NCBI GenBank assembly: GCA_964016885.1
Contig: OZ024743.1
Location: 236,096,001-236,160,000, forward strand
From: Eledone cirrhosa
Taxonomy: Eukaryota
Length of the DNA: 64,000 bases
Reading direction: 5' to 3'
The notes below the pieces were generated by a model that saw nothing but the letters and a program-made list of their open reading frames with translations, was not told the origin of the DNA and made no database searches. Below, piece after piece: positions 3,191 to 63,058 of the stretch (within the stretch, counting starts at the first letter, position 1; each line of letters begins with the position of its first letter). The translations under genes and the position numbers were made by a program.

Positions 3191-3419
3191 GGAACATAAA
3201 ACTCCATTACCATATTTCTAATGAAAAACACTGCCTCTAATTTTCAGATGATTTTGAAAATCAAGAATTTAAGACTTAGCAATATAAATTTTTATATCAT
3301 TATTTTATTTCTCCTCCTGGTGTGTGATAAGGCTTAGGAAATCCTGTTTTAGAGAAATATTTTACAAACAGAAGTTATACAATGATGGAAATATTGAAAA
3401 AAGTTAAAAACAAAATTAA

Positions 3420-3638: not shown

Positions 3639-3644
3639 TTAAGT

Positions 3645-4295
3645 AATGAAAAAACAGGGGGGAATGGGTAAAGACGGGAAGATCTGGCTGTATAGGAAAG
3701 TAGAGGGCTATAGATGACATAAATGTGAAGGAGGGAAAGAGTAAGATATATTAGACAACTTTATAATTATTAAGCAGGTGTTTGGAACGAAGTTTCTAAG
3801 AATTATGATAGGTCTTTTTTAAACTTGTGACATACAGGTGTGTTGCGTTGTCAACACTAATAAAACCAAACTTGTGACATACAGGTGTGTTGTCAGTTAA
3901 CTCCACTGAAACCAACAAATTCCCCAGCCAGTTGTCATGGGACAGACATACATTTTTTATTTTTCCATTTAATAGTTGAGCTCTCAGGTGTTCTTGGACT
4001 CTGTACAGCAGAGCTTCTCCATAACATTGGAACATCAGTAGCATGTTTGAGGAAGGAGCCCCACGAGGTTGTGTGACTGGTACAGTGAATGTTGCTGGCT
4101 ATTGTCCACGGAAATGCCTTTACAGTTGTTTGCGGGGCACAGACAAAACACAGCCCCGATGTAGGAATAGATCCTGTCACCCTCTCCCTTTTTCCTTCTA
4201 TTTCTTCACATTTACAACATTTATAATCCTTTCCTCGACCTCCCTATACAGCCAGATCTGCCATTCTTTACCTCCTCCCCGTTTATTTCATTAAA
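3645..4295. repeat. Old inverted-repeat (fold-back/MITE-like) element
   Basis: agatctggctgtatagg (~3680) mirrors cctatacagccagatct (~4245), with degenerate flanking similarity. Confidence 0.5.
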
Positions 4296-4589
4296 TAATT
4301 ATGAAAACTTTAATTTGTAGATATTAAAACATTTAATATCAGTAATATCTTTGGGGATGTTTCTTGTTTCTCCTCATCTCTAAAAATGTCAACCTCTAAA
4401 GAAATAACATATTATTAATGTATTAGACAAAATACCTTGCAGTATTTAGTTAGGGTCTAAGTTAAAATCCTGTCATGACTGGCTTTGACTTCCATCCTGT
4501 TGGGGTTTGATAAAATGATTGCTCCCAATTACTTTGGTCCAATTACTTTGAAGTAGTAAGACTAACTGTATTAGTCATATTATTTGGAT

Positions 4590-4970
4590 ACATTAAGACC
4601 AATCACAACATTATGTCATATGGTCACATGTTTCAATCATTATATATCATATGTGGTCCTATCTCTGATGTATTAAGACCAGCTATAACATATGTGGTCC
4701 TATCACTGATGTATTAAGACCAATCATAACATTATATATCATATAGTCCTATCACTGATATATTAAGACCAATCAGAACATACATCATATAGTCCTATCG
4801 CTGATGTATTAAGACCAGTCATAACATATATCACATGTGGTCCTATCTCTGATGTATTACGACCAATCATAACATATCATATAGTCCTATCACTGATGTA
4901 TTAAGACCAGTCATAACATTATATCATGTGGTCCTATCACTGATGTATCAAGACCAGTCATAACATATGT
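4590..4970. repeat. ~40-45-bp minisatellite
   Basis: Unit gtcctatcactgatgtattaagaccaatcataacat..., about 8 copies. Confidence 0.9.
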
Positions 4971-5591
4971 ACGAGTTGTGTCAGGCCAATCTTATTACAT
5001 CACATTGTCTTAAATGTTATGTAAACAAGAGTTAGAAGTGATAAGACTTATCACTTCTTACTGACAGAGGTTGTACAAGAGAAAATGTGTTACTAAAGCA
5101 CACCATAATAATTATGTGACATCTATATATATATTGATTAGTTCTTTCATTGTTTTGGTACTGTATGGTTGGGTTTTGCCTACCACAATTTTCAATTTGT
5201 CAAGCTATTTAAACATAATGTTATTACTCTAAGGACCTACCCTTATTGAGTGATTTGCTGCTCATTCCTTATTGTAAATCGACTTTGCTTAGCCACAGCC
5301 AAAGCTTCGATTTTACTAAGCTTCCACTTGTGTGTGTATATATATATATATATATATTTATATCTATCTATTTATCTATATATTTATATCTATATATTTA
5401 TATCTATCTATCTATATATTTATATCTATATATATAGCTATATATTTATATCTATATATATAGCTATATATTTATATCTATATATATAGCTATATATTTA
5501 TATCTATATATATAGCTATATATTTATATCTATATATTTATATCTATCTACATATATCTATATATCTATCTATCTATATATCTATATCTAT

Positions 5592-6833: not shown

Positions 6834-8078
6834 GGTGCGGATGATATTTGTTCGCAAGATTACTGTCTAGGAAAAAATAACACAGTAGTTTTATTTTTTT
6901 AGATATATTTATCAAAATTAGATCAGTTTGTCTTCATGACTTGTTCTATTGATCTCACTCGATAAACCCGCCATTGGCTTTGATGACGGCCTCGGAACCG
7001 GCTACAGGGCTTTGTCACTGTCCCCCCGACTTAGGCCCCTAAAGGCTCTTGTGATCCTGGCCTTCAGATCGTCTTTCGTATTGCAGCTAGATCTGTTGGT
7101 GTCTCATTCCACTGCGTCCCACACAAAGAAGTCAAGGGGGTTGCAGTCAGGCGAGCTGGGAGGCCAGATGTCAGGTGAAGTGTGGTCGACGAAGTTCTGA
7201 CAGCCAGGCTTGGGTTTTTCGGCTGGTATGGCAGGGCGCTGAGTCTTGCTGCAACACGTACGGCCTACCTGCAGCTACCTGGTCAATCCGGGGCGTTACT
7301 ACCTTACTCAGAATGCGGATGTAGCCATCGGTGTTTAGCTTGAAGCCCTCAGGGAAGAAGTGAGGTGGCATGACGTCACCTTGACTGCTGACAAGACCTA
7401 AGACCAATGTTGTCGCTGGAAACTTTGTCTGCATGACTCTGGGCACGTCTTTGGATGAGACAGCGAGCCACCTGTTGTTCTGGGAGTTGATCTGGTCTTG
7501 GCAGAAGTTTTTCTCGTCGGAGAAAAACCACAGCATGTCTGGCTCCAGTGGGTGTTTCAACTTGTTGATCAGCTTCTTTGTGTGCTTCAGGCGCTTTTCT
7601 TGGATCGCCTTTGACAGAAATTGTCTTTTCCTCATCTTGTATGAAACGTAGCCAATGTCTTCATGTACCACCAGCCTAATGAGCTTTTCATCCACACCTT
7701 TCTCCTTTGCAATGGCACGCATCGACTTGCTAGGTTCATTGTTGATGATATCCTGAACTTCAGCGACGAACTCGGGCGTTCTGATGGCGTAAGATCATGT
7801 GTTGCTTCGTAGTCGAATCCTGAATCTTCCAATTCCTTTCTGACCTTTTCCATCATTCTCCTGCCGACGCCTGAAATTTCCTTATTTGTCCTCCCGGCAC
7901 GGATTCCAAGAAGAACTCCGTGTCTCTTCCACAAATTTGGAGGTTCAAAATTATTCATAATCAATTATTCTGAAAATAAATAATGGAAATATAGTGACTG
8001 TTTTTATGAAGACAAGAGTGACAACGGAAGTAAAAAAAATTTGCATAAAATTAGCAAACAAATATCGTCCACACCCTG
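6831..8078 (-). mobile_element. Tc1/mariner DD37D (maT-like) DNA transposon with frameshifted transposase
   Basis: TIRs cagggtgcggatgatatttgttcgc / gcaaacaaatatcgtccacaccctg, left end preceded by TA. Motifs WFFSDEKNF, QQDSAPCH and, after a frameshift, WPPSSPDCNPLDFFVW; 37 residues between the second and third D after repair. Confidence 0.9.
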
Positions 8079-8086
8079 TCTATAAC

Positions 8087-11000
8087 TATCTATCTACCAC
8101 ACATCACTAACACAGTTCTGTTCTATCTACAACACATCACTACCACAGTACTGTTCTATCTACCACACATCACTAACACAGTACTGTTCTATCTACCACA
8201 CATCACTAACACAGTACTGTTCTATCTACAACACATCACTAACACAGTACTGTTCTATCTATCACACATCACTAACACAGTACTGTTCTATCTACCACAC
8301 ATCACTAACACAGTACTGTTCGATCTATAACCTATCACTAACACAGTTCTGTTCTATCTACAACACATCACTAACACAGTTCTGTTCTATCTACCACATA
8401 TCACTAACACAGTTCTGTTCTATCTATAACCTATCACTAACACAGTTCTGTTCTATCTACAACACATCACTAACACAGTTCTGTTCTATCTACAACACAT
8501 CACTAACACAGTTCTGTTCTATCTACCACATATCACTAACACAGTACTGTTCTATCTACAACATATCACTAACACAGTTCTGTTCTATCTACAACACATC
8601 ACTAATACAGTAGTTCTATCTACCACACATCACTAACACAGTTCTGTTCTATCTACCACATATCACTAACACAGTACTGTTCTATCTACAACATATCACT
8701 CACACAGTTCTGTTCTATCTACAACACATCACTAATACAGTACTGTTCTATCTACCACACATCACTAATACAGTACTGTTCTACCTACCACACATCACTA
8801 ACACAGTTCTGTTCTATCTACCACATATCACTAACACAGTACTGTTCTATCTACAACATATCACTAACACAGTACTGTTCTATCTACAACATATCACTAA
8901 CACAGTACTGTTCTATCTACAACACATCCCTAACACAGTACTGTTCTATCTACAACACATCACTAACACATTACTGTTCTATCTACAACATATCACTAAC
9001 ACAGTACTGTTCTATCTACCACACATCACTAACACAGTAGTGTTCTATCTACAACACATCACTAACAGTTCTGTTCTATCTACCACACATCACTAACACA
9101 GTTCTGTTCTATCTACCACACATCACTAATACAGTACTGTTCTATCTACAACACATCACTAACACAGTTCTGTTCTATCTACAACACATCACTAACACAG
9201 TACTGTTCTATCTACAACACATCACTAACACAGTTCTGTTCTATCTACCACACATCACTAACATATTTGTTCTATCTACCACACATCACCAACACAGTTC
9301 TGTTCTATCTACCACACATCACTAACACAGTACTGTTCTATCTACCACACATCACTAACACAGTACTGTTCTATCTATAACCTATCACTAACACAGTTCT
9401 GTTCTATCTACAACACATCACTAACACAGTTCTGTTCTATCTACCACATATCACTAACACAGTACTGTTCTATCTACAACATATCACTAACACAGTTCTG
9501 TTCTATCTACAACACATCACTAATACAGTACTGTTCTATCTACCACACATCACTAACACAGTTCTGTTCTATCTACCACATATCACTAACACAGTACTGT
9601 TCTATCTACAACATATCACTAACACAGTACTGTTCTATCTACCACACATCACTAACACAGTTCTGTTCTATCTACAACATATCACTAACACAGTACTGTT
9701 CTATCTACAACACATCCCTAACACAGTACTGTTCTATCTAACACACATCACTAACACAGTACTGTTCTATCTACCACACATCACTAACACAGTCCTGTTC
9801 TATCTACCACACATCACTAACACAGTAGTGTTCTATCTACAACACATCACTAACAGTTCTGTTCTATCTACCACACATCACTAACACAGTTCTGTTCTAT
9901 CTACCACACATCACCAACACAGTACTGTTCTATCTACAACACATCACTAACAGTTCTGTTCTATCTACAACACATCACTAACACAGTTCTGTTCTATCTA
10001 CAACACATCACTAACACAGTTCTGTTCTATCTACAACACATCACTAACACAGTACTGTTCTATCTACAACACATCACTAACACAGTACTGTTCTATCTAT
10101 CACACATCACTAACACAGTTCTGTTCTATCTACAACACATCACTAACAGAGTTCTGTTCTATGTAACATACAACACTAACACAGTACTGTTCTATCTACA
10201 ACACATCACTAACACAGTACTGTTCTATCTACAACACATCATTAACACAGTACTGTTCTATCTACAACACATCACTAACAGTACTGTTCTATCTATCACA
10301 CATCACTAACACAGTTCTGTTCTATCTACAACACATCACTAACACAGTACTGTTCTATCTACAACACATCACTAACACAGTACTGTTCTATCTACCACAC
10401 ATCACTAACACAGTTCTGTTCTATCTAACACACATCACTAACACAGTACTGTTCTATCTACCACACATCACTAACACAGTTCTGTTCTATCTCCCACACA
10501 TCACTAACACAGTTCTGTTCTATCTATCACACATCACTAACACAGTTCTGTTCTATCTACAACACATCACTAACACAGTTCTGTTCTATCTACAACACAT
10601 CATTAACACAGTACTGTTCTATCTACAACACATCACTAACACAGTACTGTTCTATCTACAACACATCACTAACACAGTTCTGGTCTATCTACAACACATC
10701 ACTAACACAGTACTGTTCTATCTACCACACATCACTAACACAGTTCTGGTATATCTACCACACATCACTAACACAGTACTGTTCTATCTACCACACATCA
10801 CTAACACAGTTCTGGTCTATCTACCACACATCACTAACACAGTACTGTTCTATCTACCACACATCACCAACACAGTTCTGGTCTATCTACCACACATCAC
10901 CAACACAGTTCTGGTCTATCTACCACACATCACCAACACAGTTCTGGTCTATCTACCACACAACACTAACACAGTTCTGGTCTATCTACAACACATCACT

Positions 11001-12233
11001 AACACAGTACTGTTCTATCTACCACACATCACTAACACAGTACTGTTCTATCTACCACACATCACTAACACAGTACTGTTCTATCTACCACACATCACTA
11101 ACACAATACTGTTCTATCTAACACACATCACTAACACAATACTGTTCTATCTAACACACATCACTAACACAGTACTGTTCTATCTACCACACATCACTAA
11201 CACAGTTCTGGTCTATCTACCACACAACACTAACACAGTTCTGGTCTATCTACAACACATCACTAACACAGTACTGTTCTATCTACCACACATCACTAAC
11301 ACAGTACTGTTCTATCTACCACACATCACTAACACAATACTGTTCTATCTACCACACATCACTAACACAGTTCTGGTCTATCTACAACACATCACTAACA
11401 CAGTACTGTTCTATCTACCACACATCACTAACACAGTTCTGGTCTATCTACCACACATCACTAACACAGTACTGTTCTATCTACCACACATCACTAACAC
11501 AGTTCTGGTCTATCAACCACACATCACCAACACAGTTCTGGTCTATCTACCACACATCACCAACACAGTTCTGGTCTATCTACCACACAACACTAACACA
11601 GTTCTGGTCTATCTACAACACATCACTAACACAGTACTGTTCTATCTACCACACATCACTAACACAGTACTGTTCTATCTACCACACATCACTAACACAA
11701 TACTGGTCTATCTACCACACATCACTAACACAGTTCTGGTCTATCTACCACACATCACTAACACAGTACTGTTCTATCTACCACACATCACTAACACAGT
11801 TCTGGTCTATCTACCACACATCACTAACACAGTTCTGGTCTATCTACCACACATCACCAACACAGTTCTGGTCTATCTACCACACAACACTAACACAGTT
11901 CTGGTCTATCTACAACACATCACTAACACAGTACTGTTCTATCTACCACACATCACTAACACAGTACTGTTCTATCTACCACACATCACTAACACAATAC
12001 TGTTCTATCTAACACACATCACTAACACAATACTGTTCTATCTACCACACATCACTAACACAGTTCTGGTCTATCTACAACACATCACTAACACAGTACT
12101 GTTCTATCTACCACACATCACTAACACAGTTCTGGTCTATCTACAACACATCACTAACATAGTTCTGTTCTATCTAACACACATCACTAACACAATACTG
12201 TTCTATCTAACACACATCACTAACACAGTTCTG
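8087..12233. repeat. 33-bp tandem satellite, about 125 copies
   Basis: Unit acacatcactaacacagt(a/t)ctgttctatctac(c/a); period 33 measured at 8101/8134; no unique spacers. Confidence 0.97.
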
Positions 12234-12439
12234 TGTTGATCTGTCTAACTATTTATCTATGTAAATAAAGAAATATATCTATGTAGATTCTGAAATAACA
12301 ATTGTGTAACACACACGTCTAAGACTGACACACACACGTCTAACACTGGCATATACACATTTTTCTGGCAACTGAATTACACACACAAACACACATACAT
12401 GACACTGACATTCTCCCACACATACATACACTCCCTTTC

Positions 12440-33252: not shown

Positions 33253-33879
33253 TTAATTAGGTTTATAATATTTAAAAGTTCTTCTAATTTTATGATTACA
33301 TGATATAATTAATTCTTGTCGCTTATTTAATAGGATATCCTTAGATTTCATTATTTCAAAAAGTTCCTGGGAACATAATCTACATTCATATCTATTATTT
33401 TGATAAGGGGTGGCCCTTTTGAGCACACTCCAGGTCAGGTTATAATCGATATTCATTTTTCTATAATTATTAATTATTTCAGCTAAGGATGTTGTATTAG
33501 CTAATGCGGCATTTTTAAAACTGTGTTTGTGGGTATTAAATCTTACTTTAAATTGGTTAGAAGTAGCTCCTATATATGAATAAGTTGAGTCCTTAGTGTT
33601 AATTTTACATTTATATACTATGTTATTAATAAGGCAATTTCCTTTTAATGGGCAATTTGCTTTGTTTCTACAGTTACAACCTTTCGTGAATGTTGTATCA
33701 GAGGAGATAGTCAAATTAGGTGTGAAATTTTCTCGACTTGTTGTATGTGAATGAGATGGTGGTTTGCTGTGGTTTATTTTAGTATTATGGTTAGTTCGAT
33801 GTATTGGTGGTATATTTATGTTTTTTTTACATTTATATGCATTATAGGCACTTATATTTTGTTGGACACTACCGTACAT
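33253..33879 (-). pseudogene. PLE GIY-YIG endonuclease C-terminal region
   Basis: CNCRNKANCPLKGNC, NIVYKC, YIGATSNQFKVRFNTH, CRLCSQE, LLNKRQE..SCNH motifs; no RT domain upstream. Confidence 0.85.
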
Positions 33880-44869: not shown

Positions 44870-45858
44870 TATATATATATAAAATAGACTATGTGTGTGT
44901 GTCTGTTTCCACAAAACTTCTACAACTTGCAACCGATTTTCTTCAGATTTGGCACAAACATGCGTTATGCTCCTGACCTTCGTACGAACTCCTTACATTT
45001 TCAAATGTGTGTCTACTGCGCCCTCTATAAGAGAAAAACCGACTCAAAAAAATCATTTTTGTCAATAACTTCTACAGTTTGCATCCGATTTCCTTCAAAT
45101 TTGGAACAAACATACCTTATGTTCCCCACTTTATTTTGGATTCATAACATTTTGTTTAGTGCATCCCACTGGACCAGAAAAAAAAACGAATCGAAAAAAT
45201 CCACATCGTTATAACGCCTAAAGTTTGCGACCAATTTCCTTCAAATTTGAAACAACCATGCCTCATGTACCAAACACTATTTTGGACTAGCCGATTTTTC
45301 GAGTTTTTATCTAGTTCGGGGCCTGTGTGAGAAAAACTAAATTTAAAAAAGTATCAACGTCAATAACTTCTACAAATTTGCACCAATTATGCATTGTGTT
45401 CCGTTTAATACGTTTTACTCATAAAGGTTTAGTTGTTCTGCCTACTGTAGCTCATAACAGCGGAAAATCAATTCAAACGGCCACCTTAATTGCATGGTTT
45501 ACTGCTTGGTCCATGCGGGTTTATCGATTTTTCCCCACTGGCATAACACGCGATGCACAGATGTTTAGTGTAAAGGGCGCATTTCATAAGACATCGGTTG
45601 TGCCAGAAAAAGCTTAATTGGTGAAAAAGAGTCAGAACGGATCTATTGAAAAAGTCTCCGCCAACGATTAGCAACAATAACACCGGGTGTTACGGGTTTG
45701 TTTTTTTTCACCAAAGAAGTAAGGCAAAAACTACAACCTATGTCTCCGCTCCATGTGCGCAACTCACAATCATATTTGATTTTTTATTTAGACGTGTTAC
45801 TGCACTTTTGAAGTTTAATTTTTCCAATCCCATGCAACTCTGGGCTCCACTGCTATAT
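44870..45858 (+). mobile_element. Non-autonomous Helitron-like element
   Basis: Starts tatatataaaa + gtgt/ctgt; internal ccgattttcttcaaatttgg subrepeats; ends ccca-tgcaactc-tggg hairpin then ctgcta. Confidence 0.6.
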
Positions 45859-45876
45859 ATATATATGTGCGCGCGC

Positions 45877-45946
<70 letters not shown>

Positions 45947-46010
45947 ACGTGTGTGTGTGTGCGCGTATGTAGATATATGTATATATATGTGTGTGTGTGC
46001 GTGTGTGTAT

Positions 46011-46041
<31 letters not shown>

Positions 46042-46184
46042 CTTAGGTTAATAGGAGTTAGGTATTGTATACCCGTGTCCCATTAAGGTATTGGCAGCAT
46101 AATAATTAGCTCTATGCTTTGGAGCAGAGCCGTATATATGATAAAGAACACAAGAGCGTCTACAACATCAACAGATTTTTATTG

Positions 46185-46229
46185 GCTTACAATGTTTCTT
46201 CCTTACGTAGCCGTAGGATTCGTCAGAGC
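46185..46229 (-). ncRNA. Type-I hammerhead motif, left arm
   Basis: Reverse complement of 50932-50976 with one change in the stem II loop. Confidence 0.75.
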
Positions 46230-48313
46230 TATAAAAGGGGTTTGATTGGTGTTATGGACTCTACCAGCCAAACATTCAAGAACAAAGGGTAAAGAGAGTA
46301 AAGAGCAAAAGTAGGGGACGATAAGTCTAATTTTGGTGCGGGAGGCTGGGGTGTGGGTCCTTGTTTACTAGCTGCGGTCATATTCATTCCCGGGAGTCGA
46401 GTGGTTAGCTGAACCATAGATGGGGTGGCGTCGATAGTATGGTGCAGAGGGTGTGCAGAGGCTACACAAACACAAAGGGCATACAATATATATATATATA
46501 TAACGGAGGAGAAAGTACATGAGGTAATTAGAAATGGAAAAAGAGTAATAATAATAATCTATAATTAATAATGTATAATAAGGCATGGGGAAGATTACAC
46601 TATAATAAGGTATAAAAGTAAGAATAAGGTAAAATATAAAGGAGGATAAAAGTGGAAATAATAAAGATAAAAAATATATATGTAAAAAAACATATAGAGA
46701 ATATATAAAGAAATATAAGCGAGTATTTGGAGGGGAAAACACAATGTAAAAAAAACCGATTTTTTCAAATAAAAATAAAAATATTATAATTATGGGGGGA
46801 GAAAACGGGATAGAGAAATATGATCAAATGTGATTAGTTGAGAGAATATAAGATGATAATAGTTATGTCAAGTTTATACATCTTAATAATAAATAATCTG
46901 TGTATCAGAGTTACAGAACCTTCAATTCACTTACAGGTTCAAGCCACGTGGCATAGTCCATTGTTTATCTGTGCGGTTATGCGCGTTTGTTTTTGACACC
47001 ACAGCAGATGCACAAGTTCGTAAATTCCAATGCAGGTAGAAATCTATTTTTGCTCACCCGGACATTGACGGAGGATCCAATATTCCTAGTTCAATTTGTG
47101 TGTGGTGTTATTTTGGTCGCACAAATCAATCACTTGGTTCAATATTATGGAGTATAGTTTTCTGGTCTTTGTAACAGTGTCAGTGGTTGTATATCTCGAA
47201 ATCACCAGGATCACAGTACTCCGGTTTAGTGTGATTATCGGTCATCCAGCTATGTTGTTGGTGGTTGGATTCAATTCTATTGCCCCGAACGTAGAACTAT
47301 GGTGTCGATAGAACATTAACGAGGCAGGGTGAGATCGCATCTGTGGTACAAAACGGTACACAAGGAAATTCTTCGTCTTCGTTTCATCCGGGTCCAGCAG
47401 TCACGTGCAATAACCGCTACGTAGTAATTGTGGGGTTAATCGGTCAAGTCAGCAACTGACCGAAAATTCTCTTAGGAATTCAGACAGGCATGACAGGCAC
47501 ATTTAGGTCAGCAGCTTCTTTATGTGTACGTGTGTCCGACACACACAGACACACATTTATATGTATTTCAACTCAAAAAACTCAATTGATTCACCCACTG
47601 ATACTACGATCGGTCAAGACAGCAACTGGCCGAAAATTCTCTTAGGAATTCAGACAGGCATGACAGGTACATTTAGGTCAGCAGCTTCTTTATGTGTACG
47701 TGTGTCCGATACACACAGACACATATCCATATGTATTTCAACTCAAAAAATTCAGTTGATTCGCCTATTGATATTATATCTGTGTTGCTCCGATGTGCAT
47801 GTTGTGGTGTTCTGGTCGTGCATAGCATTCACTGTGTTTTGCCATTACCTTGGAATGTGATGTTATGGTCATCAATAGTCCGGCAAGCGCATTTCTCTCT
47901 TATATTGCGGAGAATGGTGTTCCGGTCCTCAGTAAACATTTGGGTCAGCAGGAGGGGTGGTGGTTCACAGTTTCAACTTCGACAATACATATGTGTTACT
48001 CTACATATCGTGCTCCTCTCAAAGAAGAGTATTATAGGAGGAATTCATGCCAAACACCACATATAGAGAGGATTTCTACAGAAAAGTATACATACATATA
48101 CACATATATAGACACATCATACACACACACATACACATACACACACATACGCATACATACATATATTCACATACATGTCACATATACACATACACACAAT
48201 ATAATACGCATGCATACAATATACATATATATATATATATATACAACATAGATGCATACAATGCACGCACACATGCATGCATGCATGCACACACGTACGC
48301 ACACACACATACA

Positions 48314-48640
48314 TATATAGGAGCAACGTCCAATATATTTAAAACTAGATTTAACGCGCATATGTACACATTTAGGCACGATAGACATAAGAATGCCACC
48401 TCACTGGCGGTATACATCTCCTTTTTAAAAAATAATAGTACCCCATACAAACTTTTTGGGAGGAAGCTTACTAGATCCACGCCATACCGACCGCAGAGCG
48501 GAAGTTGTGACCTGTGTTTACTGGAATGCCATGCCATAATACACTCTAAACTGAACCTGCTTAACAGGAAATCGGAAATTTTCTCCTCTTGCCAACACAA
48601 AATACTGAGTTCCTTCTTCTATTTTAAACCTAGCACATAG
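48314..48640 (+). pseudogene. PLE GIY-YIG endonuclease C-terminal fragment
   Basis: YIGATSNIFKTRFNAH...ATSLA...CDLCLLE...LLNRKSEIFSSCQHK, homologous to 33253-33879. Confidence 0.85.
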
Positions 48641-48904
48641 ACGTAACATATATCACGCAACCCCCACCTAGACTATAGATCAACCCCTCCCCCCAACCTG
48701 TAACCCAGATAGATAGGTACCCTAAGGGTGGAACAGTCCCCTACAAGGTTGGTGTTTTCGCGCGTGTGTGTATGTGTGTGTATGTGTGTGTGTGTGTGTA
48801 TTCTCCTTTTCTCTCTCACACACACACACACACAGACATATGTATGTGTGTGTGCGTACGTGTGTGCATGCATGCATGTGTGCGTGCATTGTATGCATCT
48901 ATGT

Positions 48905-48943
<39 letters not shown>

Positions 48944-50931
48944 TGTATGCATGCGTATTATATTGTGTGTATGTGTATATGTGACATGTATGTGAATATA
49001 TGTATGTATGCGTATGTGTGTGTATGTGTATGTGTGTGTGTATGATGTGTCTATATATGTGTATATGTATGTATACTTTTCTGTAGAAATCCTCTCTATA
49101 TGTGGTGTTTGGCATGAATTCCTCCTATAATACTCTTCTTTGAGAGGAGCACGATATGTAGAGTAACACATATGTATTGTCGAAGTTGAAACTGTGAACC
49201 ACCACCCCTCCTGCTGACCCAAATGTTTACTGAGGACCGGAACACCATTCTCCGCAATATAAGAGAGAAATGCGCTTGCCGGACTATTGATGACCATAAC
49301 ATCACATTCCAAGGTAATGGCAAAACACAGTGAATGCTATGCACGACCAGAACACCACAACATGCACATCGGAGCAACACAGATATAATATCAATAGGCG
49401 AATCAACTGAATTTTTTGAGTTGAAATACATATGGATATGTGTCTGTGTGTATCGGACACACGTACACATAAAGAAGCTGCTGACCTAAATGTACCTGTC
49501 ATGCCTGTCTGAATTCCTAAGGGAATTTTCGGCCAGTTGCTGTCTTGACCGATCGTAGTATCAGTGGGTGAATCAATTGAGTTTTTTGAGTTGAAATACA
49601 TATAAATGTGTGTCTGTGTGTGTCGGACACACGTACACATAAAGAAGCTGCTGACCTAAATGTGCCTGTCATGCCTGTCTGAATTCCTAAGAGAATTTTC
49701 GGTCAGTTGCTGACTTGACCCATTAACCCCACAATTACTACGTAGCGGTTATTGCACGTGACTGCTGGACCCGGATCAAACGAAGACGAAGAATTTCCTT
49801 GTATACCGTTTTGTACCACAGATGCGATCTCACCCTGCCTCGTTAATGTTCTATCGACACCATAGTTCTACGTTCGGGGCAATAGAATTGAATCCAACCA
49901 CCAACAACATAGCTGGATGACCGATAATCACACTAAACCGGAGTACTGTGATCCTGGTGATTTCGAGATATACAACCACTGACACTGTTACAAAGACCAG
50001 AAAACTATACTCCATAATATTGAACCAAGTGATTGATTTGTGCGACCAAAATAACACCACACACAAATTGAACTAGGAATATTGGATCCTCCGTCAATGT
50101 CCGGGTGAGCAAAAATAGATTTCTACCTGCATTGGAATTTACGAACTTGTGCATCTGCTGTGGTGTCAAAAACAAACGCGCATAACCGCACAGATAAACA
50201 ATGGACTATGCCACGTGGCTTGAACCTGTAAGTGAATTGAAGGTTCTGTAACTCTGATACACAGATTATTTATTATTAAGATGTATAAACTTGACATAAC
50301 TATTATCATCTTATATTCTCTCAACTAATCACATTTGATCATATTTCTCTATCCCGTTTTCTCCCCCCATAATTATAATATTTTTATTTTTATTTGAAAA
50401 AATCGGTTTTTTTTACATTGTGTTTTCCCCTCCAAATACTCGCTTATATTTCTTTATATATTCTCTATATGTTTTTTTACATATATATTTTTTATCTTTA
50501 TTATTTCCACTTTTATCCTCCTTTATATTTTACCTTATTCTTACTTTATACCTTATTATAGTGTACTCTTCCCCATGCCTTATTATACATTATTAATTAT
50601 AGATTATTATTATTACTCTTTTTCCATTTCTAATTACCTCATGTACTTTCTCCTCCGTTATATATATATATATATTGTATGCCCTTTGTGTTTGTGTAGC
50701 CTCTGCACACCCTCTGCACCATACTATCGACGCCACCCCATCTATGGTTCAGCTAACCACTCGACTCCCGGGAATGAATATGACCGCAGCTAGTAAACAA
50801 GGACCCACACCCCAGCCTCCCGCACCAAAATTAGACTTATCGTCCCCTACTTTTGCTCTTTACTCTCTTTACCCTTTGTTCTTGAATGTTTGGCTGGTAG
50901 AGTCCATAACACCAATCAAACCCCTTTTATA

Positions 50932-50976
50932 GCTCTGACGAATCCTACGGTTACGTAAGGAAGAAACATTGTAAGC
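50932..50976 (+). ncRNA. Type-I hammerhead motif, right arm
   Basis: gct-CTGACGA-atcctacg-gtta-cgtaaggaa-GAAA-cattg-TA-agc, about 50 nt from the (TA)n edge. Confidence 0.78.
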
Positions 50977-51914
50977 CAATAAAAATCTTTTGATGTTGTA
51001 GACGCTCTTGTGTTCTTTATCATATATATATATATATATAGCGGGCGGAACCACCGAAGCCGTTGTTTATGATTTCCATAGTAAGCTATGTACCGGAGAC
51101 GAATTAGTATTAATAAGTTAACCATAACATACAGTTGTACTTATTTACTATAGTTATGAATCGTTATTATAAACAAATAAGTTTGGTTGGCTGGGCGCAT
51201 ACATGAGTGCATATATACATACATACGCATACATATAGGTACATTACATACATATAAATACATATACATTCACATGAATACATGAGTGCATACATACATA
51301 TATAGATTTACATAAATACATACGTACGCACATATATACATATATATATATACACACAGACACAGACACACACATGCATAATAACGTAAGTACATACATA
51401 CATATATACACATATACATGGTGGCTGCCAACTCGTTTTCGAGTACGGCCTCTACATTATATCCATGTAGGAGAACCCCTACCGATGCGCTGAACGAGTG
51501 TGACTTTTTAGTCCAGCCAGCGACTTGAAAACTCTGGTACAAACACTACACCTGTCACAATTATTGTCACATAGTGCTGGGCCCATGGTACCATGTGACG
51601 ACAAGTGCAGAGAGATCTCCAGATATAAAGCAATGCCTGTGCTGTGAAGCTTTTATAGTGAGCAAAGGCACTTCACAAAGCCAGTCCCACTCTCTTGACC
51701 AAGATGATATTTACCAAAAAGAAGAACAAGTCAACATCATTGGATACCATCAGGGTTGCAGGTGTTATATCAGAGTTTTCCTTCTCCTAGAATTCTGCTT
51801 TGACAAAGCCTAAGGGGTCATCTCTCCCGGATGATATATACATACATACACACATACATACACACATACATACATACGCACATACATACACACATACATA
51901 CACACATAAATATA

Positions 51915-54900
51915 TAATAATCGAAGAAATATTAATAATAATCGAAGAAATTTGACACCACGTGTACCATCCGAGTCTACCTCGATTGTTGTGGAAATAC
52001 TATCGATAATGATAATCAAAAGTATAAACAATTGAAATTTTCCCCCAACGAAATCTTCCAGAGAGAAATTAATTCATGTATAAATATCTCTCTTGCTGAA
52101 CGTATTAAAACGACAATGTTTAATAAAAAAAAACAAATAATGAAATACTACGTGTTATTGACGAAATAGGGGATGAATATTTACGACGGATAAAAACCCC
52201 AAAATGTTGGCACATCAACGCCTGTTTATATGCCTTAGCAACGACAGTTAAGCATTATCTTGGTGATAGCAGAGATATTAACAAGAACAGAACACCACCA
52301 AAAATACCATCATATATAACTAAAATAGAAAAAAAGAGTGCTGACCTACGAAAAAACATAGGACATGTGACAATGCTCCTTATATGCAGACAAACACAAA
52401 AAACCTCACTCCTCACCAACAAAGAGTGAAAAATGAAATAGAGACGATATTTGGTAACAGTAGAACCAGAACTCTCCAATATAAGCTGATCACCCTCAAA
52501 CAAGAATTGAGACCTGTTAGCGAAAAACGCCGATACCTGAAGAAGGTAAATGAGAGAAAAATGCTTAATAAAAGATTCAGACGAAACCAAACATCAGTCT
52601 ATAGAGATATGAAGGGCAAAATAATAAGTGTCACTGAGGCCCCATCCCAGAAAGACATAGATTCCTTTTGGAGAAAAATATGGGGTGAAAAGAAGAATTT
52701 CAACCAAGATGAAGTGTGGCTAAGAGAAATGTGAAATAACTATTGCTCCTACACTACAACAAAAACATACGAAATAAATGAGGGTACCCTTGAGACTGTG
52801 ATAGGAAAACTTCAAAATAAGAAAACACCAGGAAGAGACATGATTGTCGGCTACTGTTACAAAAAACTGATATTCTATATGAGGTATCTTACTGACCTCT
52901 ACCAACAAGTTCTTAAGGGAGATACACTTATACCAGAATGGTTGACATTAGCACAAACGTTACTGGTCCCCAAGAACAAAGACAGCCACTTGGCAAAAAA
53001 CTACCGACCCATTGCATGCCAGAACCTGATATATAAGATGTATACAGCCTGTCTGAACCTATTCCTCCAAGATCACTGTGAAAATAATAACATCATCACA
53101 GATGAACAAGCAGTTGGAAAGAAAGGGGTTTGGGGATGTGCAGAACAACTCCTAATTAACAAAACTGCGATGTCGGAGGTGCGACAACTTAGGAGGAATA
53201 TGACTACAGTCTGACTGGACTACAGGAAAGCTTTCGATTCTGTTCCCCACTCTTGAATGATAGAGGCCCTCCAACTTGCTAAAGTCCCAGACATTATTGT
53301 CACAGCCATAGAGAAGCTGTCTTCTTCTTGGGCTACTATCCTAAGGTTAAAACCAGAGAGAAAGGACTCTATTTTCACTGATAAAATAAAATATTGCAGG
53401 GGTATATTTCAGGGGGACAGTCTCTCTGTGATATTGTTTATCTTGTCATTAAACCCCTTGTCCTTTCTGCTCAAGAAATGTGAGGGATACATCATTGGCT
53501 CACAGGAGGACAGAAATACGAACCTAACCCATCATTTCTTTGTGGACGATCTGAAACTCTATGCCAAAAACATGGATGGGATGAAGAAAAATCTTGACCT
53601 GGTTACAACGTTCTCAAAGGATATAGGAATGGAGTTTGGCCAAGATAAATGCTCATACATGACTGTAAAGCGAGGAAAAACAACAATCCAATCTAGCAAC
53701 ATTGTTATCAATGACCTAACTGTTTCACCGATATCTGACGAGGACTGCTACAGATACCTGGGGATAGATGAGAACATATCCTATAATGGTATCTGTAATA
53801 AGGAACGCGTAACTAGGGAATACTACACCCGATTAAGAAAGATCTGGTCATCGGAAATCTCTGCGCAAAACAAAACAGTGGCTCACAATGTGTTTGCTGT
53901 GCCTGTCATAACACCAACTTTTGGAATACTCAATTGGACGATAGACGAAATCCGAGCAGTTGATGTTGGAACTCGAAAAATACTAAACAACACCGGAAAC
54001 TTCCACATCAACAGTGACATAGACCGCCTTTACTTGAAACGTAAGCAGGGAGGCAGAGGCCTAACATCAGTCCAAACAACATTTGAATGTCGCATCATAT
54101 CTCTCCGACAACATCTACGAACCTCGAAGCGTAGGAGCCCGTTTCTCGAGCAAGTCTATCTGCATGAAACATAAGATCATGAGAGTTGGGAAGGAACTCC
54201 TCGAGAGATATTTCCTGTGTGATAATCAAAAACTCACACCCAGGAAAGTCGCTCAGCAGTATCGCAGTAAATCCATGGATGAAAAACTGCATGCCTATCA
54301 GCAAAAAATCATGCATGGATATGTTGCCAGGAAGCTCCAGAGTGAGAGTAATATAGATAAGGAAAGTAGTCTATCTTGGACCAACAACCGCTATATTGTT
54401 TCCCACTTTGAAGGATACGCTTTTGCAATCCAAGAACAGGAGATTAGCACGAAATACCTGATTCACAAAAGAGATAGGGATGCAGGCAAAACACCTAGAT
54501 GTGATAACAAGTGCAGACTCTGCAGAACTAACATCGAGGATTTCACCCATGTCATCAGCAGCTGTCCAAAGATGTCATCGCGGTACTATCTACCTATGAA
54601 GCATGATGTAGTGACCAAAACATTGTACAATGCAGTTCGTAAAAAAGATAGCCCCGATAATAAACACATTAAAAGCTACAGCAATGTGGAAGTCATCCAT
54701 GTACATAATAATGAAAGAGTACTGGTGGAATGTTCCACTAAAAACCTCAATAAAATGCAGACATAAGAGACCAGATATTATGATATGGGAGAAGAAAACA
54801 TGCACAGTAGTGGAAATTAGCTGCCCAGCAGATGCCAATATAATATCAAAGATTAGTGAAAAGGAGAATATTTATGCAAAACTGATGAGAAATCTGCAGA

Positions 54901-55305
54901 TACTCCACCCTGATTACACCTTGAGATTTATGCCTGTGATTATTGGGGCACTGGGGTATGTTAGTAACTGCCTCATTACAAATCTTGAGAAGCTAGGCTT
55001 CACAGGAACAGAAAGAACACAACTAGTTAGGAAATTACAAGTACAATCCATTAATGGAACAGTAAAAATATGTAAAACATTCCAAAAATTGTGCATCTAA
55101 TAACTGCATATACACATGTACAGATGCAAAGCATATACACATGCACACATACAACTCAAAACATCCACATCCACACATACAATAACATCCATATCTACAC
55201 ATGCATGCATACATACATATCTACCTAGTTGTTGTTGTGTAAATTCCAATGAGAGAGTCTTGTGTCTATGTTAGTAAAACTTTGTGAAATTATAAAACCA
55301 GAACA
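51915..55305 (+). mobile_element. R4/Dong-like non-LTR retrotransposon (RT + restriction-like endonuclease), disrupted
   Basis: NYRPIAC, RGIFQGDSLS, FVDDLKLY, YRYLG RT motifs; CRLC..H...C knuckle; RPDI..VEISCP..KEN.Y REL motif; several stops and frameshifts. Confidence 0.9.
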
Positions 55306-57193: not shown

Positions 57194-57709
57194 AAAAGAA
57201 TGAAACGAAATTTCATTTCTCACTCTTAGTACGGCTGGTACTTAAATGTAAGTATGTATGTATATGTACATACATATATGTATACAGACGTACAGCAGTA
57301 TGTATATATATACATGCACATATATATATATATATGTACGTATGGGTTTACCGAACATTTATTATAATGCTCGGTTTGTTTGTAAACAAACAGCCCGAAT
57401 TACGCCGCACAGTGTTCAGGCAACCATCGTCACCTTTTTATTCAACACTGACACAGGAACGATGTACTAGTTTAAAGCTTATTAGCTATCGTCAGCATCG
57501 TATACATTTCTGTCAGATGGTTGAACGTCTGAAAGTGTATACTTTCCTTATGCATATTAACGGCTGAGCAGCCTAATTTGCATATCGAGTGAGTTAGTCG
57601 GCCGGGCGCACCGAAAACGATAAATGGAAAAGAATGAAAGGAAATTTCATTTCTCACTCTTAGTACGGTTTCCATTTATCGTTTTCGGTGCGCCCGGCCG
57701 ACTAACTCA
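57190..57709 (-). repeat. Hammerhead-bearing repeat with a terminal 41-bp inverted repeat
   Basis: IR 57590-57630 / 57669-57709; direct repeat ~57192-57235 / 57626-57668; rearranged relative of 43412-43740. Confidence 0.75.
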
Positions 57710-60700
57710 ATAACACCTTTTATAAAATTTGCTGGAGTACAGCACCTCTCTCTCCATCCTGATTCTTCTTCCGAAATGATATCGGAAGAAACGGATCAGT
57801 TGTTGGCCAGAGAGAAAGGTGCCTGACCTCAGTCCTTTCAGACGTGTCCACCATACAACCTCTTTCACCATGGCTATTACGCACAGAAACACCGCCTCTC
57901 CTTCATTTTTGAAGGGGGGAGGCGGCTTAATCGTTACAATGGCCTCAGTGGTCAACCGGATCGGTTCTACCCGTGACAGCAATCGTTCGACATAGCCCCA
58001 CAGATCGGCTACGCCCGAGCAGTGTACCAATGCGTGTGCAACGGTTTCCTCGTCGCATACGCATCTGGGACAGATCTTTTTGGCGGGATCCCTAATCGGG
58101 CGCCCGTGTCTGTAGAGCTTTTCTCGAACGGGTAGAGCCCCTCGGTAGCACTGCCAGGCCAGGGACTTCTGGAAGTTGTCCATAGGTCCCGGGCTGAATG
58201 TCCTACCGAATAGGCTGGCCAGTTCGTCTTCCTCCATGTCTAGGGCTTCTCCGAGGGCGTCGTCGCACCTGTTGCTGACCAGCCCTCTATAGAATGTCGA
58301 GGTGGAGTCTCCACTGATAACCGGGTCCGCCTGCCAGAGGGCCGTGAGCGCCTGGGCACACTCAGTGTGCCAAGCGCCCAGTTTTCTCGGTCTTTGCTTG
58401 ACCCAGGATTGCAGCTCGGTGAGTGAGACGAGTCTGGGAAAGGTTCGTCTCACAAACGGGGCCCACACCGGTTGACCGGTGAGGAATACGTGGAGGTACC
58501 GTAGCCTTAATGCGTGTTTACACATCATTAGCCACGGCATCCCCAGACCTTTTTTCGAAGGGTGTTGACAGCAGATGGATCTCCTCAGCAAAGGAACCCG
58601 CTTCTTCCAAAGGAATTGAAAGAGTGCGCGCTCCATCTTAGCGAGGGTTTCCCTTGGGCAATGCACGACGGTCAGGCGGTAGTAGATGACGGACGCTATA
58701 TAGGTGTTCGCCACCTCCGCCCGATTTTTCAGGGATAGTTTGTAACTGGCCCACTTCTGGGTCAATGCAAACACCCTGTTCGTAACCTCCGCCCAGACCC
58801 CGAACAACTTCACCGGGCCCTCCGTCCAGCGTCCGACGACGCCATCGGAGGGCATCGGTTTGCCCCTCCACGTGCCGAGTTGCAAACCGATCGACTTGTC
58901 CCGGTTCAGCTTAGCCCCTGTGAATTTTTCGTACTCCTCCAGTAAGGTGCCGATCGCCCCGATTTCGGAGGCCGTCGACACCATTACTGTCACGTCATCG
59001 GCGTAGGCCGACACCGCTTTCCTCAATCCCGGTTACAAAGGGATGCCCTGCAACAACTCCAACTTCCGCAGTAGTGGCTCGAGAGTCAATACATACAGAA
59101 GGGAGGAGAGAGGGCACCCTTTTCGGATGGACCGCGCGATTTCGAACGGCTCCGAGAGGTAGCCATTCACCTTGACTCTAGAGCAGATGCGGCTGCTGTG
59201 CATAGCAGTGATCCAGCCCCTGAAAACTGGTCCGAAGCCTGCCGCCACTAGCACCGCATCCAGGTAACCATGGTCGACCCTATCGAACGCCTTAGATTGA
59301 TTCAAGTTGATCAGGGCCCCACCAAAGCCGGGTTCGTTCCCAACCCTCTCTATGATGTATCGCATGAGGTGGAGGTTGTCGTGGATGGACCTGGACGGGA
59401 TAGCACATGTCTGCGCATCTCCCACCAGGTTGCCCACGACAAAGGCCAACCTCTTTGCTAGCACCTTGGCTAAAATCTGTAACTCTGTATTTAGCAGAGT
59501 TATGGGCCTGAAGTTACTTATTTCGTCCCCCTTGTTCTCGTCCTTCCTCACTAGCGTGACTACGCCCTTGGTCACAGAACAGGGAATTCTCCCGTTCTGT
59601 TGCCAGTTGCAGTAGACCGCCTCGAGAAGATCGGGGAACAAGTCCGGCATCGCTAGATATTGTTCTTATGGAAGACCATCGAGACCCGGGGATTTGCGTT
59701 TGCCGCATTGGCTCAGCACGTCTTCTATCTCAGCGGCTGAAATCGGCTCCTCGCAGGACTTCGCCTCCACGTCCGAAAGACGCGGCAGGCCGTCGAGGTA
59801 TGGACCGAAGTCCACTTCTCCAACCGGCTCCCCGCCCCTTCCGAACAATCGGGCAAAGTGCCTTTGAAAGGCCTCACACATCTGCTTAGGTTCAAGGATC
59901 GTTCGTCCATCCTGGTCTCGCAAAGACCGGATGGTGGATTTAATTCTACTCTTGGCTTCTGTCACACGGGCCCAGCTAACAGCTTTGGTCCCCTCGTTCC
60001 CCAGAGCACGTATTTTACTTCGGACAACGCAGCTTTCGTGCTTCGTGTCGAAAAACTGGCTCAACACCGTTCTCGACGCTAGCACTCTGGCCACGTCGCC
60101 GCTTCTAATTCCCTCTTCTATTCTATCTATCAGCTCCCTTTCCTTCCTATTCCTATCCGTAGCTAGAACCTTACTAAATTCTATCGAGACTAATCTAATC
60201 TCTCTCTTTAGAGATACCCACCACCTGCTGTTGACGATCGCTCCAGTCAACCGCTCCTTAACTAACGTACTAATCCGGTCCCTGTAAGCTTTACTTACCG
60301 GTAAGGACAAGTTCAGCTTCCAGTAACCGGGACCCTGTCTATGCGTTCTATCAAGGTTGACCATGCAGGTCACCAACTTGTGGTCTGAATAGCCAACCAT
60401 GAGCATTTCTGGACAACTTAAAAAGTCCCTGGCCTTATTTCTAACTAAGAACCTATCTAGGTACGATCTAGATTGACCGCTGCGATTTGTCCAAGACAAG
60501 GTTGACACCGTCAGAAAATCTAGTCGAAATCTATCGGCCAGGTCAAATCGGCCGATTAACCCCTTGAGGCTGTTGCACCCCTCTCTATCGGGACATGCCC
60601 CTGCATAGTCCCAACGTGCATCCAGGATACCATTCCAGTCCCCCACTAAAAGCAGGGAACGGGACGTCCCTAGAAAAGACTCCAGACGCTGGAAAAAGTC

Positions 60701-63058
60701 GGGCCGCTCTGTCCCAAAAGGGGCATATGCGGCTACCAGCCTAAAGGCTCCACCTTCACCACTGCCAAGGTCCAGCACCACCAGTCGACCCCCTGGGTCC
60801 AAGTGAACTATCTGTGTGGCGAGACCCAGATGTTTTTGCATCAGAACGACGACCCCACCCTCACCCCGGGCTGACAGAGAGATGCGTGCATCTCAAAGTC
60901 ATCAAAGGTGGGGGCCAGCTGTTGCACGCTGCTGATCCGAGTCTCGCAGATAATCATCACATTTATAATCGTGACCTGAGGTCATTTAGAAACATTGCTT
61001 GCTTCCAAGGTGAGCCCAGACCACGCGCATTTAGACACCCTACTCTTAGCACAACCATCTCTGTGTCTCGGGGAGCGGGCCGCTCAATTTCCATGAGGGT
61101 TGGGGATGGGTTGTTGGGTGGGGTGGTGGTTTGTGGAAGTGTAGGGGCATCAGTGTGTTGTGGGGTTGGGGTGTTTGTAGTTGAGTGGGTGTCTGGGTAG
61201 GGGGTGGGGAAATTTTTTAGGAGGACGTGGTTGATTGGCTTGGTGCAGGGGGGGGGGGGGGGGGGCACGTCCTACGTGAAATTTATTTTCAATGTTTTGT
61301 TTAAGTTCGTTGGGACTTTAATCATTTTTAAATGAGGTAGTCCCACAGCAGTTAGAAAGTTAGGCCCTTCAGTTTGGACCGAAGGGTTTGACGAAATTGT
61401 GTTCATTAGTTCTTTGTTGTTTGCGTTCAAGTATGTATATTGTAAAGTCTTTTTTTGCGGAGCAGTTAGTGCTATGTGAAGGGGAGGGGTGGTTTGTATA
61501 TAGTTTGTTTTCTCTTGGGGAGGGTTTATGTTAATAAGTGTGTCTGTGGTGCGCCTCCTCTTCTTTCTTTTTACTGTTTGGAAGGGATCTTTTTCGTCTT
61601 GCGACGAAAGTGGTTCGTCTTCCTTGTTAGGTGGGAGGGGTATATTTTCTGGTAGTGTTTGCGGTGTGTGTTTTTGTATTTGTTTTGGGTGGGGAGTGGT
61701 TGGGTGGGACAGTGTTCTGTGTTGTTTTTTCACGTGTTTGTTGTTGTTGTGGTGGTGGTGTTGTTGGTTTTTGTTGTTGTTATTTTTGTTGTTGGGGGGG
61801 GGGGATGTTGTTGTAGGGGTGTTGGTAACAATGGTTTTTTCGGTGTGAGCTGGGGACAGGTAACCCTCAGGTGACCTCTGTTGCCACAGAGGTAACAGGA
61901 GGGACGCCTACCCACCACAATAAAGTTGAGGTGGGTACGGTCATCCAGCATGACGAGTTCAGGGAATTGGGCGATACGTTCTGGCCTTATTTGGGTCAGA
62001 ACTTCAATGCTCGTTCCACTGAACGCGTCGCCGGATACCTTCCCTATTGATATAAGGTTGTCCTCGTCCAAGTTGAGGAAACCGGTTAGTAACCACCAGT
62101 AGTTTATGTTTGGGGTGATGGTAGTTATCCAAATTCTTTGGGTTTTTTTTACCCATGTAGGCTGGAAAAAAGGTGTAATGCGTGGAACGAATTGGCGACA
62201 CAGAGTATTTTTTCGCCGCCAATTCGTCTTTCATCAATATGGATAAACTCCCATAGAGTTTATCCTTTTGTATGAAAATTATATCTTTCATAGCCTCTTT
62301 CAGAACCAACTGAATTTCAGCTTGAGATGGTTGTGCTGGTTTTCTTGTTTTGTTGGCAATTGTACGGAATACAACAGTTTGTAATTCCGTCTGTTTTTTT
62401 AGTTCTGGGGGCGAATTGATGGAAAAAGATCCATTTTCGCCAAAAGATACATATTTCTTTGCTTTTTCAAGCATTTCTTTTGCATTTGTTATATCTTCAA
62501 GCACATAGGTGACTGATATTTTAGCAGTCTGTGCAAAAGATATTTTGTTTTCGTTTTTGGTGTTTGAGGTGTTCTGTTTCTCGTTGTTCTGTTTCACGTA
62601 GTTATTTTCATTTTTGTTGTTGTTGTCTTTCTCATTTTGGTGTGTTGGTTTTGTCATTGTTAGTGTTTTCGTTGTAATTAATTGGTTTTGCACCCATATT
62701 TACTTGTTTGTCAGGCATATCGCCTTTTACAAAATCTTTTAAAACGTTGACGCGGGAAAGCAAAGCGCTTTGTACCGCTTGCTCCTTTCTCTCTTCCTCC
62801 TTAGTGAGCGTGGCGTTTTCGTTCACACGTGCTACAGACATGGCGTCAATTTTTTATCATGTGAGTCAGCAAACATTTTTTGGAGTAGTTTTTACCCCCA
62901 AAAGGGGTAAAGATACGATGAACGCCCGTCTACAGACATAGCCCGGTGGTTAAAAGACACTAAGACAACACAATAAAGAGACAAACACTTACTGTCAATA
63001 GGTAAAAATTCAAAAAGGCAGGAGCCGATGTTGTACGCGTCTATACTATGCGAGATAA
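57707..63058 (-). mobile_element. Near full-length Tx1/L1-like LINE, frameshifted, 3' end missing
   Basis: ORF1 pieces 62841-61272 with a CYLCGNRGHLRVTC knuckle. ORF2 from ATG 61058: APE (LNARG, GDWN, SYLDR, SDH, GPGYWKLN), RT (NFRPITLLN, KAFDRV, GCPLS, AYADDV) and CPRC..H...C. Confidence 0.92.

Follow-up and report, generated by a model that had tools for sequence, protein, structure and literature searches.

The 4.9-kb palindrome found in a 64,000-nt stretch of Eledone cirrhosa DNA (contig OZ024743.1; hereafter the window) is real, and consists of two back-to-back truncated copies of one abundant Penelope-like retrotransposon (PLE). We place the probability at about 0.9 that positions 46040-51028 represent a single PLE insertion into a (TA)n microsatellite, with a direct 5'-truncated copy standing head to head with an inverted 5'-truncated copy (Table 1). 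Self-BLAST revealed a sole inverted pair, 46133-48316 versus 51028-48838, with 98.9% identity over 2,196 columns, and pairwise alignment identified exactly 7 substitutions and 3 indels between the arms (1 nt, a 12-nt (AT)n length change, and 4 nt). The near-identical inverted arms of ~2.19 kb described in an earlier note on this DNA, and the GIY-YIG remnant beginning at the inner junction, were thus both confirmed. The left edge had been set at 46133; this was incorrect, as the preceding 93 nt are the 'tail' of the family and not flank, and the true left limit is 46040. The arms are separated by a unique spacer of 521 nt. When the locus was mapped to a natural copy of the element (L066), both halves were colinear with it: window 46040-48316 corresponded to monomer 2912-5177 (-), and window 48311-51028 to monomer 2386-5084 (+). 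Neither arm contains the other, with the tail present on the left only and the endonuclease (EN) on the right only.

Table 1. Features of the two-armed PLE insertion (window coordinates).
Feature	Position	Strand	Basis or remark
(TA)n target microsatellite, left flank	46008-46040	.	TRF, sequence
93-nt PLE 'tail'	46040-46132	-	Follows pLTR end in full-length copies; left end only
Left arm: inverted 5'-truncated 3' UTR copy (monomer ~2912-5084)	46133-48316	-	Alignment, colinear mapping
Minimal type-I hammerhead motif, left copy (candidate)	46176-46236	-	Descriptor scan; core starts 46226
170-bp internal tandem dimer of the UTR	47439-47776 (mirror 49386-49723)	-	Self-BLAST, TRF, copy comparison
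Inner-junction microhomology ACATAT, 6 nt	48311-48316	.	Common to UTR microsatellite of inverted copy and EN Thr-Tyr codons
GIY-YIG endonuclease C-terminal fragment, Hydra-type	48311-48640	+	Frame T-Y-I-G...FKPST*, T-YIG to stop codon
Family 3' UTR/pLTR, 2.39 kb	48641-51028 (right arm 48838-51028)	+	Matches to other copies
Minimal type-I hammerhead motif, right copy (candidate)	50925-50985	+	Descriptor scan
(TA)9 target microsatellite, right flank	51023-51040	.	Sequence

The parent family is high-copy, with a monomer of ~5.08 kb in which an RT-EN ORF of about 850 codons (low-complexity insertions included) is followed by the 3' UTR. One copy (L065) retained an uninterrupted 815-aa frame with the RT motifs FDI and GLYRDD and the EN at its end. 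The EN fragment at our locus gave a weak Pfam match below the cut-off (E=0.017), and in other copies the EN is continuous with RT. Pfam analysis of the full protein recognized neither RT nor GIY-YIG and returned only a spurious D5_N match, and the assignment as an EN+ PLE therefore rests on motifs compared with published Hydra alignments. First-look searches gave 317 candidates for the EN, 255 for the start of the UTR, 597 for its middle and 1,540 for its end; these figures are not copy numbers and the query lengths differ, but a rise toward the 3' end is expected from 5' truncation.

The earlier note had read the arms as composite, apparently non-PLE cargo, that is, foreign DNA transduced and invert-duplicated at this locus. 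Every base of the arms mapped colinearly to the one PLE family, and the arm is its ordinary 3' UTR. A search for further copies of the composite, using a 1,941-nt arm query, yielded end-to-end matches in dozens of copies spread over many contigs (30 of 47 among the matches listed, the two in the window included). In other copies this sequence lies directly and colinearly 3' of the EN, downstream of the full RT-EN ORF; of the 39 copies counted, 37 have both units of its 170-bp tandem and the other 2 have one unit. PLE-mediated transfer of host DNA has a precedent, in which a host module of 4 kb was mobilized between PLE repeats (Arkhipova et al. 2013, as summarized in the review PMC6431247); here, in contrast, 283 kb of flanking sequence yielded no host donor of the arm, which is a fixed part of the family. 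Comparison of the UTR with these family-masked flanks by blastn and tblastx revealed one unmasked family fragment and microsatellite noise, and nothing else. The patchy appearance of the arm is all that speaks for local transduction, and with the whole arm recurring on many contigs, always preceded by the same EN, such an event is improbable in the extreme. What holds from the earlier reading is a PLE insertion with an inverted truncated copy, hammerhead motifs and an EN remnant.

By its motifs, the family is almost certainly a Penelope-like retrotransposon of the EN+ type with Hydra-clade features, the clade assignment being a comparison by eye with printed alignments (supplement text). The predicted protein followed the printed Hydra alignments block by block (PMC8557442). 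It carries the N-terminal motifs RIRWR (RWK-type) and SDKTR (DKT), with GFKT replacing GxKF/Y, which the clade does not conserve. The Hydra linker CxCX5C is present as CNCRRSSNC, with no CCHH and a single Cys between the GIY and YIG positions, and the surroundings of the EN E and N residues (CDLC..E..N..CQH) match the Hydra CxxC and CxH. A single RT-EN ORF, a type-I hammerhead near the 3' end and a (TA)n target are further likenesses to the clade as described by Craig et al. 2021 (PMC8557442), of which Hydra-1_Obim is a member. In contrast, the ~5.08-kb monomer exceeds the 2,084-2,729 bp of the complete Hydra families listed in that supplement and departs from the generality 'generally short (<3 kb)', which is a descriptive trait and not a diagnostic one, and its 93-nt tail is longer than the 30-40 bp given there for PLEs generally. 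Identity with Hydra-1_Obim was rejected, as the hammerhead sequence listed for that element differs.

Hammerheads had also been proposed at each outer end, ~50 nt from the (TA)n tracts. Our descriptor scan supported this at the level of motifs, identifying 5 in the 64-kb window and none in each of 20 block-shuffles. The right motif has the core CTGACGA at 50935-50941 (+) and GAAA at 50963, with cleavage predicted after 50973. No hammerhead was detected by Rfam at the gathering score in the whole window or at E<=5 in 45800-51400, where only microsatellite-driven miRNA noise was returned; the minimum-energy fold of the motif was also not a hammerhead (z about -0.9; -5.9 kcal/mol when constrained to a hammerhead versus -9.2 kcal/mol). 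Across three sister ends (four sequences only) the core was invariant and stems I and II had co-changed. Helix III is the palindrome ACA-T-TGT with a 1-nt loop, and motifs of this kind are reported to require dimers and to cleave poorly (PMC4209133). A transcript of the locus would carry one hammerhead in sense and one in antisense, and therefore no dimeric ribozyme should be possible in cis. The two hammerheads are the normal terminal motif of the family, copied twice. A non-LTR retrozyme was considered and rejected, since the unit belongs to a 5-kb coding element and not to a short non-coding tandem.

We also examined 73 other loci of the family, and the two-armed form was identified in 14 of them. 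Of 40 loci with long copies, 10 had an inverted arm reaching the pLTR end and 10 had partial tandems of the pLTR; among 33 loci selected by their 3' end, 4 had such an inverted arm. In tandem copies, the tail matches the start of the element body, namely the ~93 nt that come directly after the pLTR end. The tail was present on exactly one outer end in all 15 two-armed loci, the window locus included, and lay on the shorter arm in 6 (again including ours) and on the longer arm in 9. At two further loci, L067 and L113, the tail sequence alone was inverted. TA-rich or (TA)n sequence followed the family outer ends examined. A G at monomer 5045 was considered as a mark of tail-bearing ends and rejected, since ends without a tail carry it too; the family as a whole is polymorphic (G/T) at this position, and the difference seen between our arms separates the arms of 5 loci, an unexplained recurrence. 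These analyses bear on whether the palindrome is a fold-back chimera or another assembly artefact. No read or contig was seen to span the junctions of our copy, and public contigs contained the family but not the private alleles of this copy, results that count neither way; against an artefact stand the 10 differences between the arms, ends that both lie in (TA)n and are made asymmetric by the tail, the unique spacer and the recurrence of the architecture elsewhere, making it very improbable.

The insertion probably arose by two priming events. Both strands of the target would have been nicked, with each priming its own reverse transcription; one cDNA would have started at the pLTR end and extended 2.7 kb into the EN gene, while the other would have begun at the end of the tail, 93 nt downstream of the pLTR end, and reached 2.27 kb. 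The 3' ends of the two cDNAs would then have been joined through the 6-nt microhomology. The length of the palindrome would reflect nothing more than the long UTR and the far reach of both cDNAs. In L1 twin priming, an inverted and a direct segment are likewise joined at microhomology; these are non-overlapping segments of the RNA, each copied once, whereas our locus has two copies of one 2.2-kb stretch. The two-start-site chemistry is taken from PAc, a Poseidon PLE of Anolis and thus from a different clade, for which both strands were cleaved and extended in vitro, the tail lies between two RT start sites and a protein dimer is predicted (PMC11167929). PAc resembles the present family in its AT-rich target and its tail, but its hammerhead overlaps the start of the ORF, whereas ours is terminal and lies 3' of the ORF.

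An unlikely alternative for the same element is a DNA template for the inverted arm, through cDNA fold-back at integration or later arm-to-arm conversion, in place of a second priming on RNA. The arms differ from each other by 0.37% but from every other locus by 1.7% or more, so that none of 38 comparable copies is as close to either arm as the other arm is, and they have in common 9 variants that no other sampled copy carries. These private variants fit one unsampled source copy, and equally later homogenization or DNA-templated copying. The microhomology at the junction, and the containment of the short arm in the long arm in 9 of the 15 two-armed loci, also agree with copying from DNA. In contrast, a simple fold-back could not template a tail carried by the shorter arm, as in the window and 5 other loci, or the inversion of the tail only in L067 and L113; and as neither arm at our locus is contained in the other, we infer that fold-back of a single cDNA cannot yield both. 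Two priming events remain our preferred route; how the tandem and inverted structures of PLEs form is called open in PMC8557442.

The long UTR itself is patchy, with GC ranging from 23 to 50% in 150-nt bins, (CA)n/(TA)n islands and the 170-bp duplication. ORFs of at least 90 aa within it are mostly microsatellite or low-complexity frames. It is possible, though doubtful, that a forerunner of the family acquired this UTR in a single capture event, in which read-through starting at a Hydra ORF crossed host DNA and ended at a hammerhead end further downstream; this would move the mechanism of the earlier note to the origin of the family and is compatible with our best explanation. The patchiness points in this direction, as do a sister family (EN 59% identical) that has only the terminal ~40 nt of the UTR in common, the 2.1-2.7 kb of complete listed Hydra families (PMC8557442 supplement) and the reported transfer of host DNA by PLEs (PMC6431247). 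Against it, the flank, a very small share of 3.0 Gb, held no donor, no UTR piece tested drew an excess of candidates, and in the descriptor scan of the window the stretch from the stop codon to the terminal motif was free of any hammerhead remnant. Long UTRs are also a feature of further Hydra-like families in this genome, whose hammerhead-like motifs follow the EN match at distances of 945-1,123, 1,677 and 1,935 nt, and gradual accretion is therefore just as probable as capture. A combined scenario is also unlikely: Hydra-type PLEs in this genome would have grown 3' UTRs of 1-2.4 kb (elements up to ~2x the described size) by ancestral host read-through from ORF to downstream hammerhead, the insertion route would palindromize the captured DNA genome-wide, and the 93-nt tail, at one end and on either arm, would be the footprint of a dimeric protein priming at two RNA sites on opposite strands.

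The layout of an inverted 5'-truncated copy with a tail at one end is already published for PLEs (PMC8557442). Penelope-13_HM, a Hydra-clade element from Repbase, similarly has an inverted copy and hammerheads on both strands, although its inverted copy is 966 nt (PMC8557442 supplement) compared with 2,277 nt at our locus (2,184 nt duplicated, plus the tail). Rearranged copies with long inverted repeats are also described for Penelope of Drosophila virilis, where siRNAs match the inverted regions (PMC3681739); a dsRNA hairpin, as described for Penelope, would be plausible at our locus. The literature searched contained no paper on this long-UTR family, although an entry in the Repbase or Dfam libraries may exist. 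The text available of an Octopus vulgaris repeat paper (PMC13282606) has no mention of Hydra or hammerheads. What is new here is modest: a family of ~2x the listed Hydra element length, a longer tail and the longest arms seen. For annotation, a young, intact-ORF Hydra-type family of about twice the usual length naturally forms long palindromes, and these may be taken for captured cargo or faulty assembly; with its long, unambiguous tail and many young two-armed copies, the family would be well suited to testing the two-start-site model on genomic data.

The palindromic insertion at 46040-51028 is a real structure of a known kind, and what is new is the high-copy Penelope-like retrotransposon (PLE) family that built it, a Hydra-type family with a long UTR and a long tail. 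Self-comparison of the window revealed a single long inverted pair, 46133-48316 against 51028-48838, at 98.9% identity, and comparison of the arms identified seven substitutions and three indels, two of which are microsatellite-like length changes. The earlier note had described these near-identical arms and a spacer starting at the YIG of a GIY-YIG endonuclease (EN), and both observations were confirmed. The spacer begins there because the two copies overlap by ACATAT, a hexamer that occurs both within a microsatellite of the UTR and at the Thr-Tyr codons preceding Ile-Gly; the spacer frame matched Pfam GIY-YIG weakly, under the cut-off. The left edge of the insertion is 46040 rather than 46133, since monomer 5085-5177, the tail, corresponds to the opening 93 nt of a following unit. 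An assembly artefact is an unlikely source of the palindrome: the arms differ at ten places, the tail is on one side, (TA)n flanks the insertion left and right, and 14 other loci have a similar structure.

Features of the palindrome, its neighbours in the window and sampled loci (L-numbers; window coordinates unless a locus is named)
Feature	Position	Strand	Detail
Inverted copy	46040-48316	-	monomer 2912-5177 of L066
Direct copy	48311-51028	+	monomer 2386-5084 of L066
Spacer	48317-48837		frame (T-Y)-I-G-A-T...FKPST*, stop at 48640
Putative minimal type-I hammerhead, right	core CUGACGA at 50935	+	predicted cleavage after 50973; stem I GCU/AGC, helix II, GAAA, palindromic helix III
Further minimal hammerhead motifs	1717, 28038, 43503	+	each 38-129 nt ahead of a TA run
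Second Hydra-like family, EN end	33256-33687	-	46% identical; ~1.25-kb AT-rich UTR to ~32000 with 326-bp tandem duplication
Tandem array	8089-12234		33-bp unit, 126 copies
Presumed Tc1/mariner-like transposase fragment	7171-7794	-	
Broken non-LTR retrotransposon ORF set	52735-55100	+	RT/endonuclease/zf-RVT pieces
Broken non-LTR retrotransposon ORF set	57707-62700	-	RT/endonuclease/zf-RVT pieces
Sister Hydra-like family	L134, 7804-7400 and downstream	-	59% EN identity; hammerhead motif 1,935 nt past EN match; ~200 nt from there to (TA)n, possibly its own tail
Different Hydra-like family	L065, oriented 1-3094		1.4-kb inverted repeat of its own, spanning coding sequence
Hammerhead-motif arrays, 310-bp period	L075 (oriented 189-1931), L077 (3411-4596), L090 (67-2723)		direct array adjoining inverted array, ends close to (TA)n

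To place the arms in the 3.0-Gb genome, a 1,941-nt arm query was used, which gave 1,443 first-look candidates. Forty were scored and 47 matches listed; of these matches, 30 (including the two from the window itself) covered the whole query, with 93-100% identity. The spacer query matched 40/40 scored candidates (94-100%). Spacer and right arm formed one colinear unit in the matched loci, and an RT ORF continuous with the endonuclease lay upstream of it. Mapping used the natural copy L066 as ruler (monomer ~5,084 nt; ORF ~166-2712; 3' UTR up to 5084). First-look candidates climbed toward the 3' end (317, 255, 597 and 1,540, all lower bounds from queries of unequal length). The arm occurs in all long family copies as the 3' UTR, colinear behind the family EN; the earlier proposal that it is captured non-PLE cargo thus fails at this locus. 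PLE transfer of host DNA, reported in the review PMC6431247, is not the event here, the arm being family UTR.

The family protein displayed RWR, DKT, a CxCX5C linker and CxxC/CxH around E and N, with CCHH absent, and the elements terminate in (TA)n. Section 11 of PMC8557442 describes the Hydra clade by RWx-type/DKT motifs, the CxCX5C linker, CxxC/CxH, no CCHH and (TA)n ends, and a by-eye, motif-level match to the Hydra alignments in its supplement suggests that the family fits this clade; Pfam did not recognise the full-length protein. The complete Hydra families listed in that supplement measure 2.1-2.7 kb, compared with ~5.08 kb here. Long UTRs rich in microsatellites were likewise found in other Hydra-like families encountered at the sampled loci, where a hammerhead-like motif lies 945-1,123, 1,677 or 1,935 nt past the EN match; in several further families no such motif was found within the sequence available downstream of EN. 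The closest sister family (59% EN identity) has only ~40 nt at the hammerhead end in common with the present one. The long UTR may have been captured at the origin of the family or built by accretion; a small search, covering 283 kb of flank, found no match to the arm UTR outside the family and no donor. Separately, a SINE-like repeat of ~190 nt was identified at an ATTA-rich spot, UTR ~4650, in 8/76 UTR copies (L067, L070, L071, L074, L079, L107, L110 and L113; the window copy lacks it at ~50590). The 3' junctions are identical while 5' ends and duplication lengths vary, which suggests repeated, independent entry at a hot spot.

A descriptor scan revealed five minimal hammerhead motifs in the window compared with none in each of 20 shuffles. 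The right motif lies 49 nt ahead of (TA)9 and has a mirror copy on the left. Rfam detected no hammerhead at these sites and the lowest-energy fold is another structure; the hammerheads placed at both ends by the earlier note are therefore putative, identified by pattern and sister-family conservation rather than activity. The three further motifs probably mark the 3' termini of other families, either PLE or retrozyme. The 310-bp arrays appear to consist of retrozyme-like units arranged in the inverted layout of PLEs. The window element is not a retrozyme as outlined in preprint 10.64898/2026.07.22.740005 (short non-coding tandem units).

In having an inverted truncated copy and a tail on one side, the window element follows the standard PLE layout (PMC8557442, section 6), and the supplement lists a Hydra element, Penelope-13_HM, with a 966-nt inverted copy and hammerheads on both strands. 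An inverted arm reaching the end of the pLTR (the terminal repeat unit) was present in 10/40 loci selected for length and 4/33 selected by 3' end, two of the latter (L122 and L123) resembling one duplicated locus. Duplicated lengths ranged from ~100 to ~1,550 nt, and the window copy, at 2,184 nt, was the longest. All 15 two-armed loci, window counted, carried the tail on exactly one outer end (shorter arm, 6; longer arm, 9). The inverted part was tail sequence only in L067 and L113, L132 had an internal inverted piece without tail, and in 8 loci a tail was present but no inverted arm was detected.

PMC11167929 reports that an anole PLE cuts and extends both strands in vitro, with two start sites flanking the tail and a predicted dimer. 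By analogy, both strands of the (TA)n target would be nicked, one cDNA would begin at the pLTR end and a second at the tail end, each would stop at a random point, and the two would be joined through microhomology. Neither window arm contains the other, and therefore simple fold-back of a single cDNA cannot yield both. The arms have nine variants in common found in no other sampled copy, and diverge by 0.37% from each other compared with at least 1.7% from other copies; this fits a single unsampled source or homogenisation of the arms after insertion, and counts against a clean reading of the two-cDNA route. So does a G/T polymorphism at family position 5045 (window 46172/50989; G on 8/99 ends), at which the arms differ, without explanation, in five two-armed loci. 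PMC3681739 reports siRNAs that derive from inverted repeats of Penelope. If read through, the window copy would give a transcript in the form of a 2.2-kb hairpin, in which one hammerhead is sense and the other antisense.
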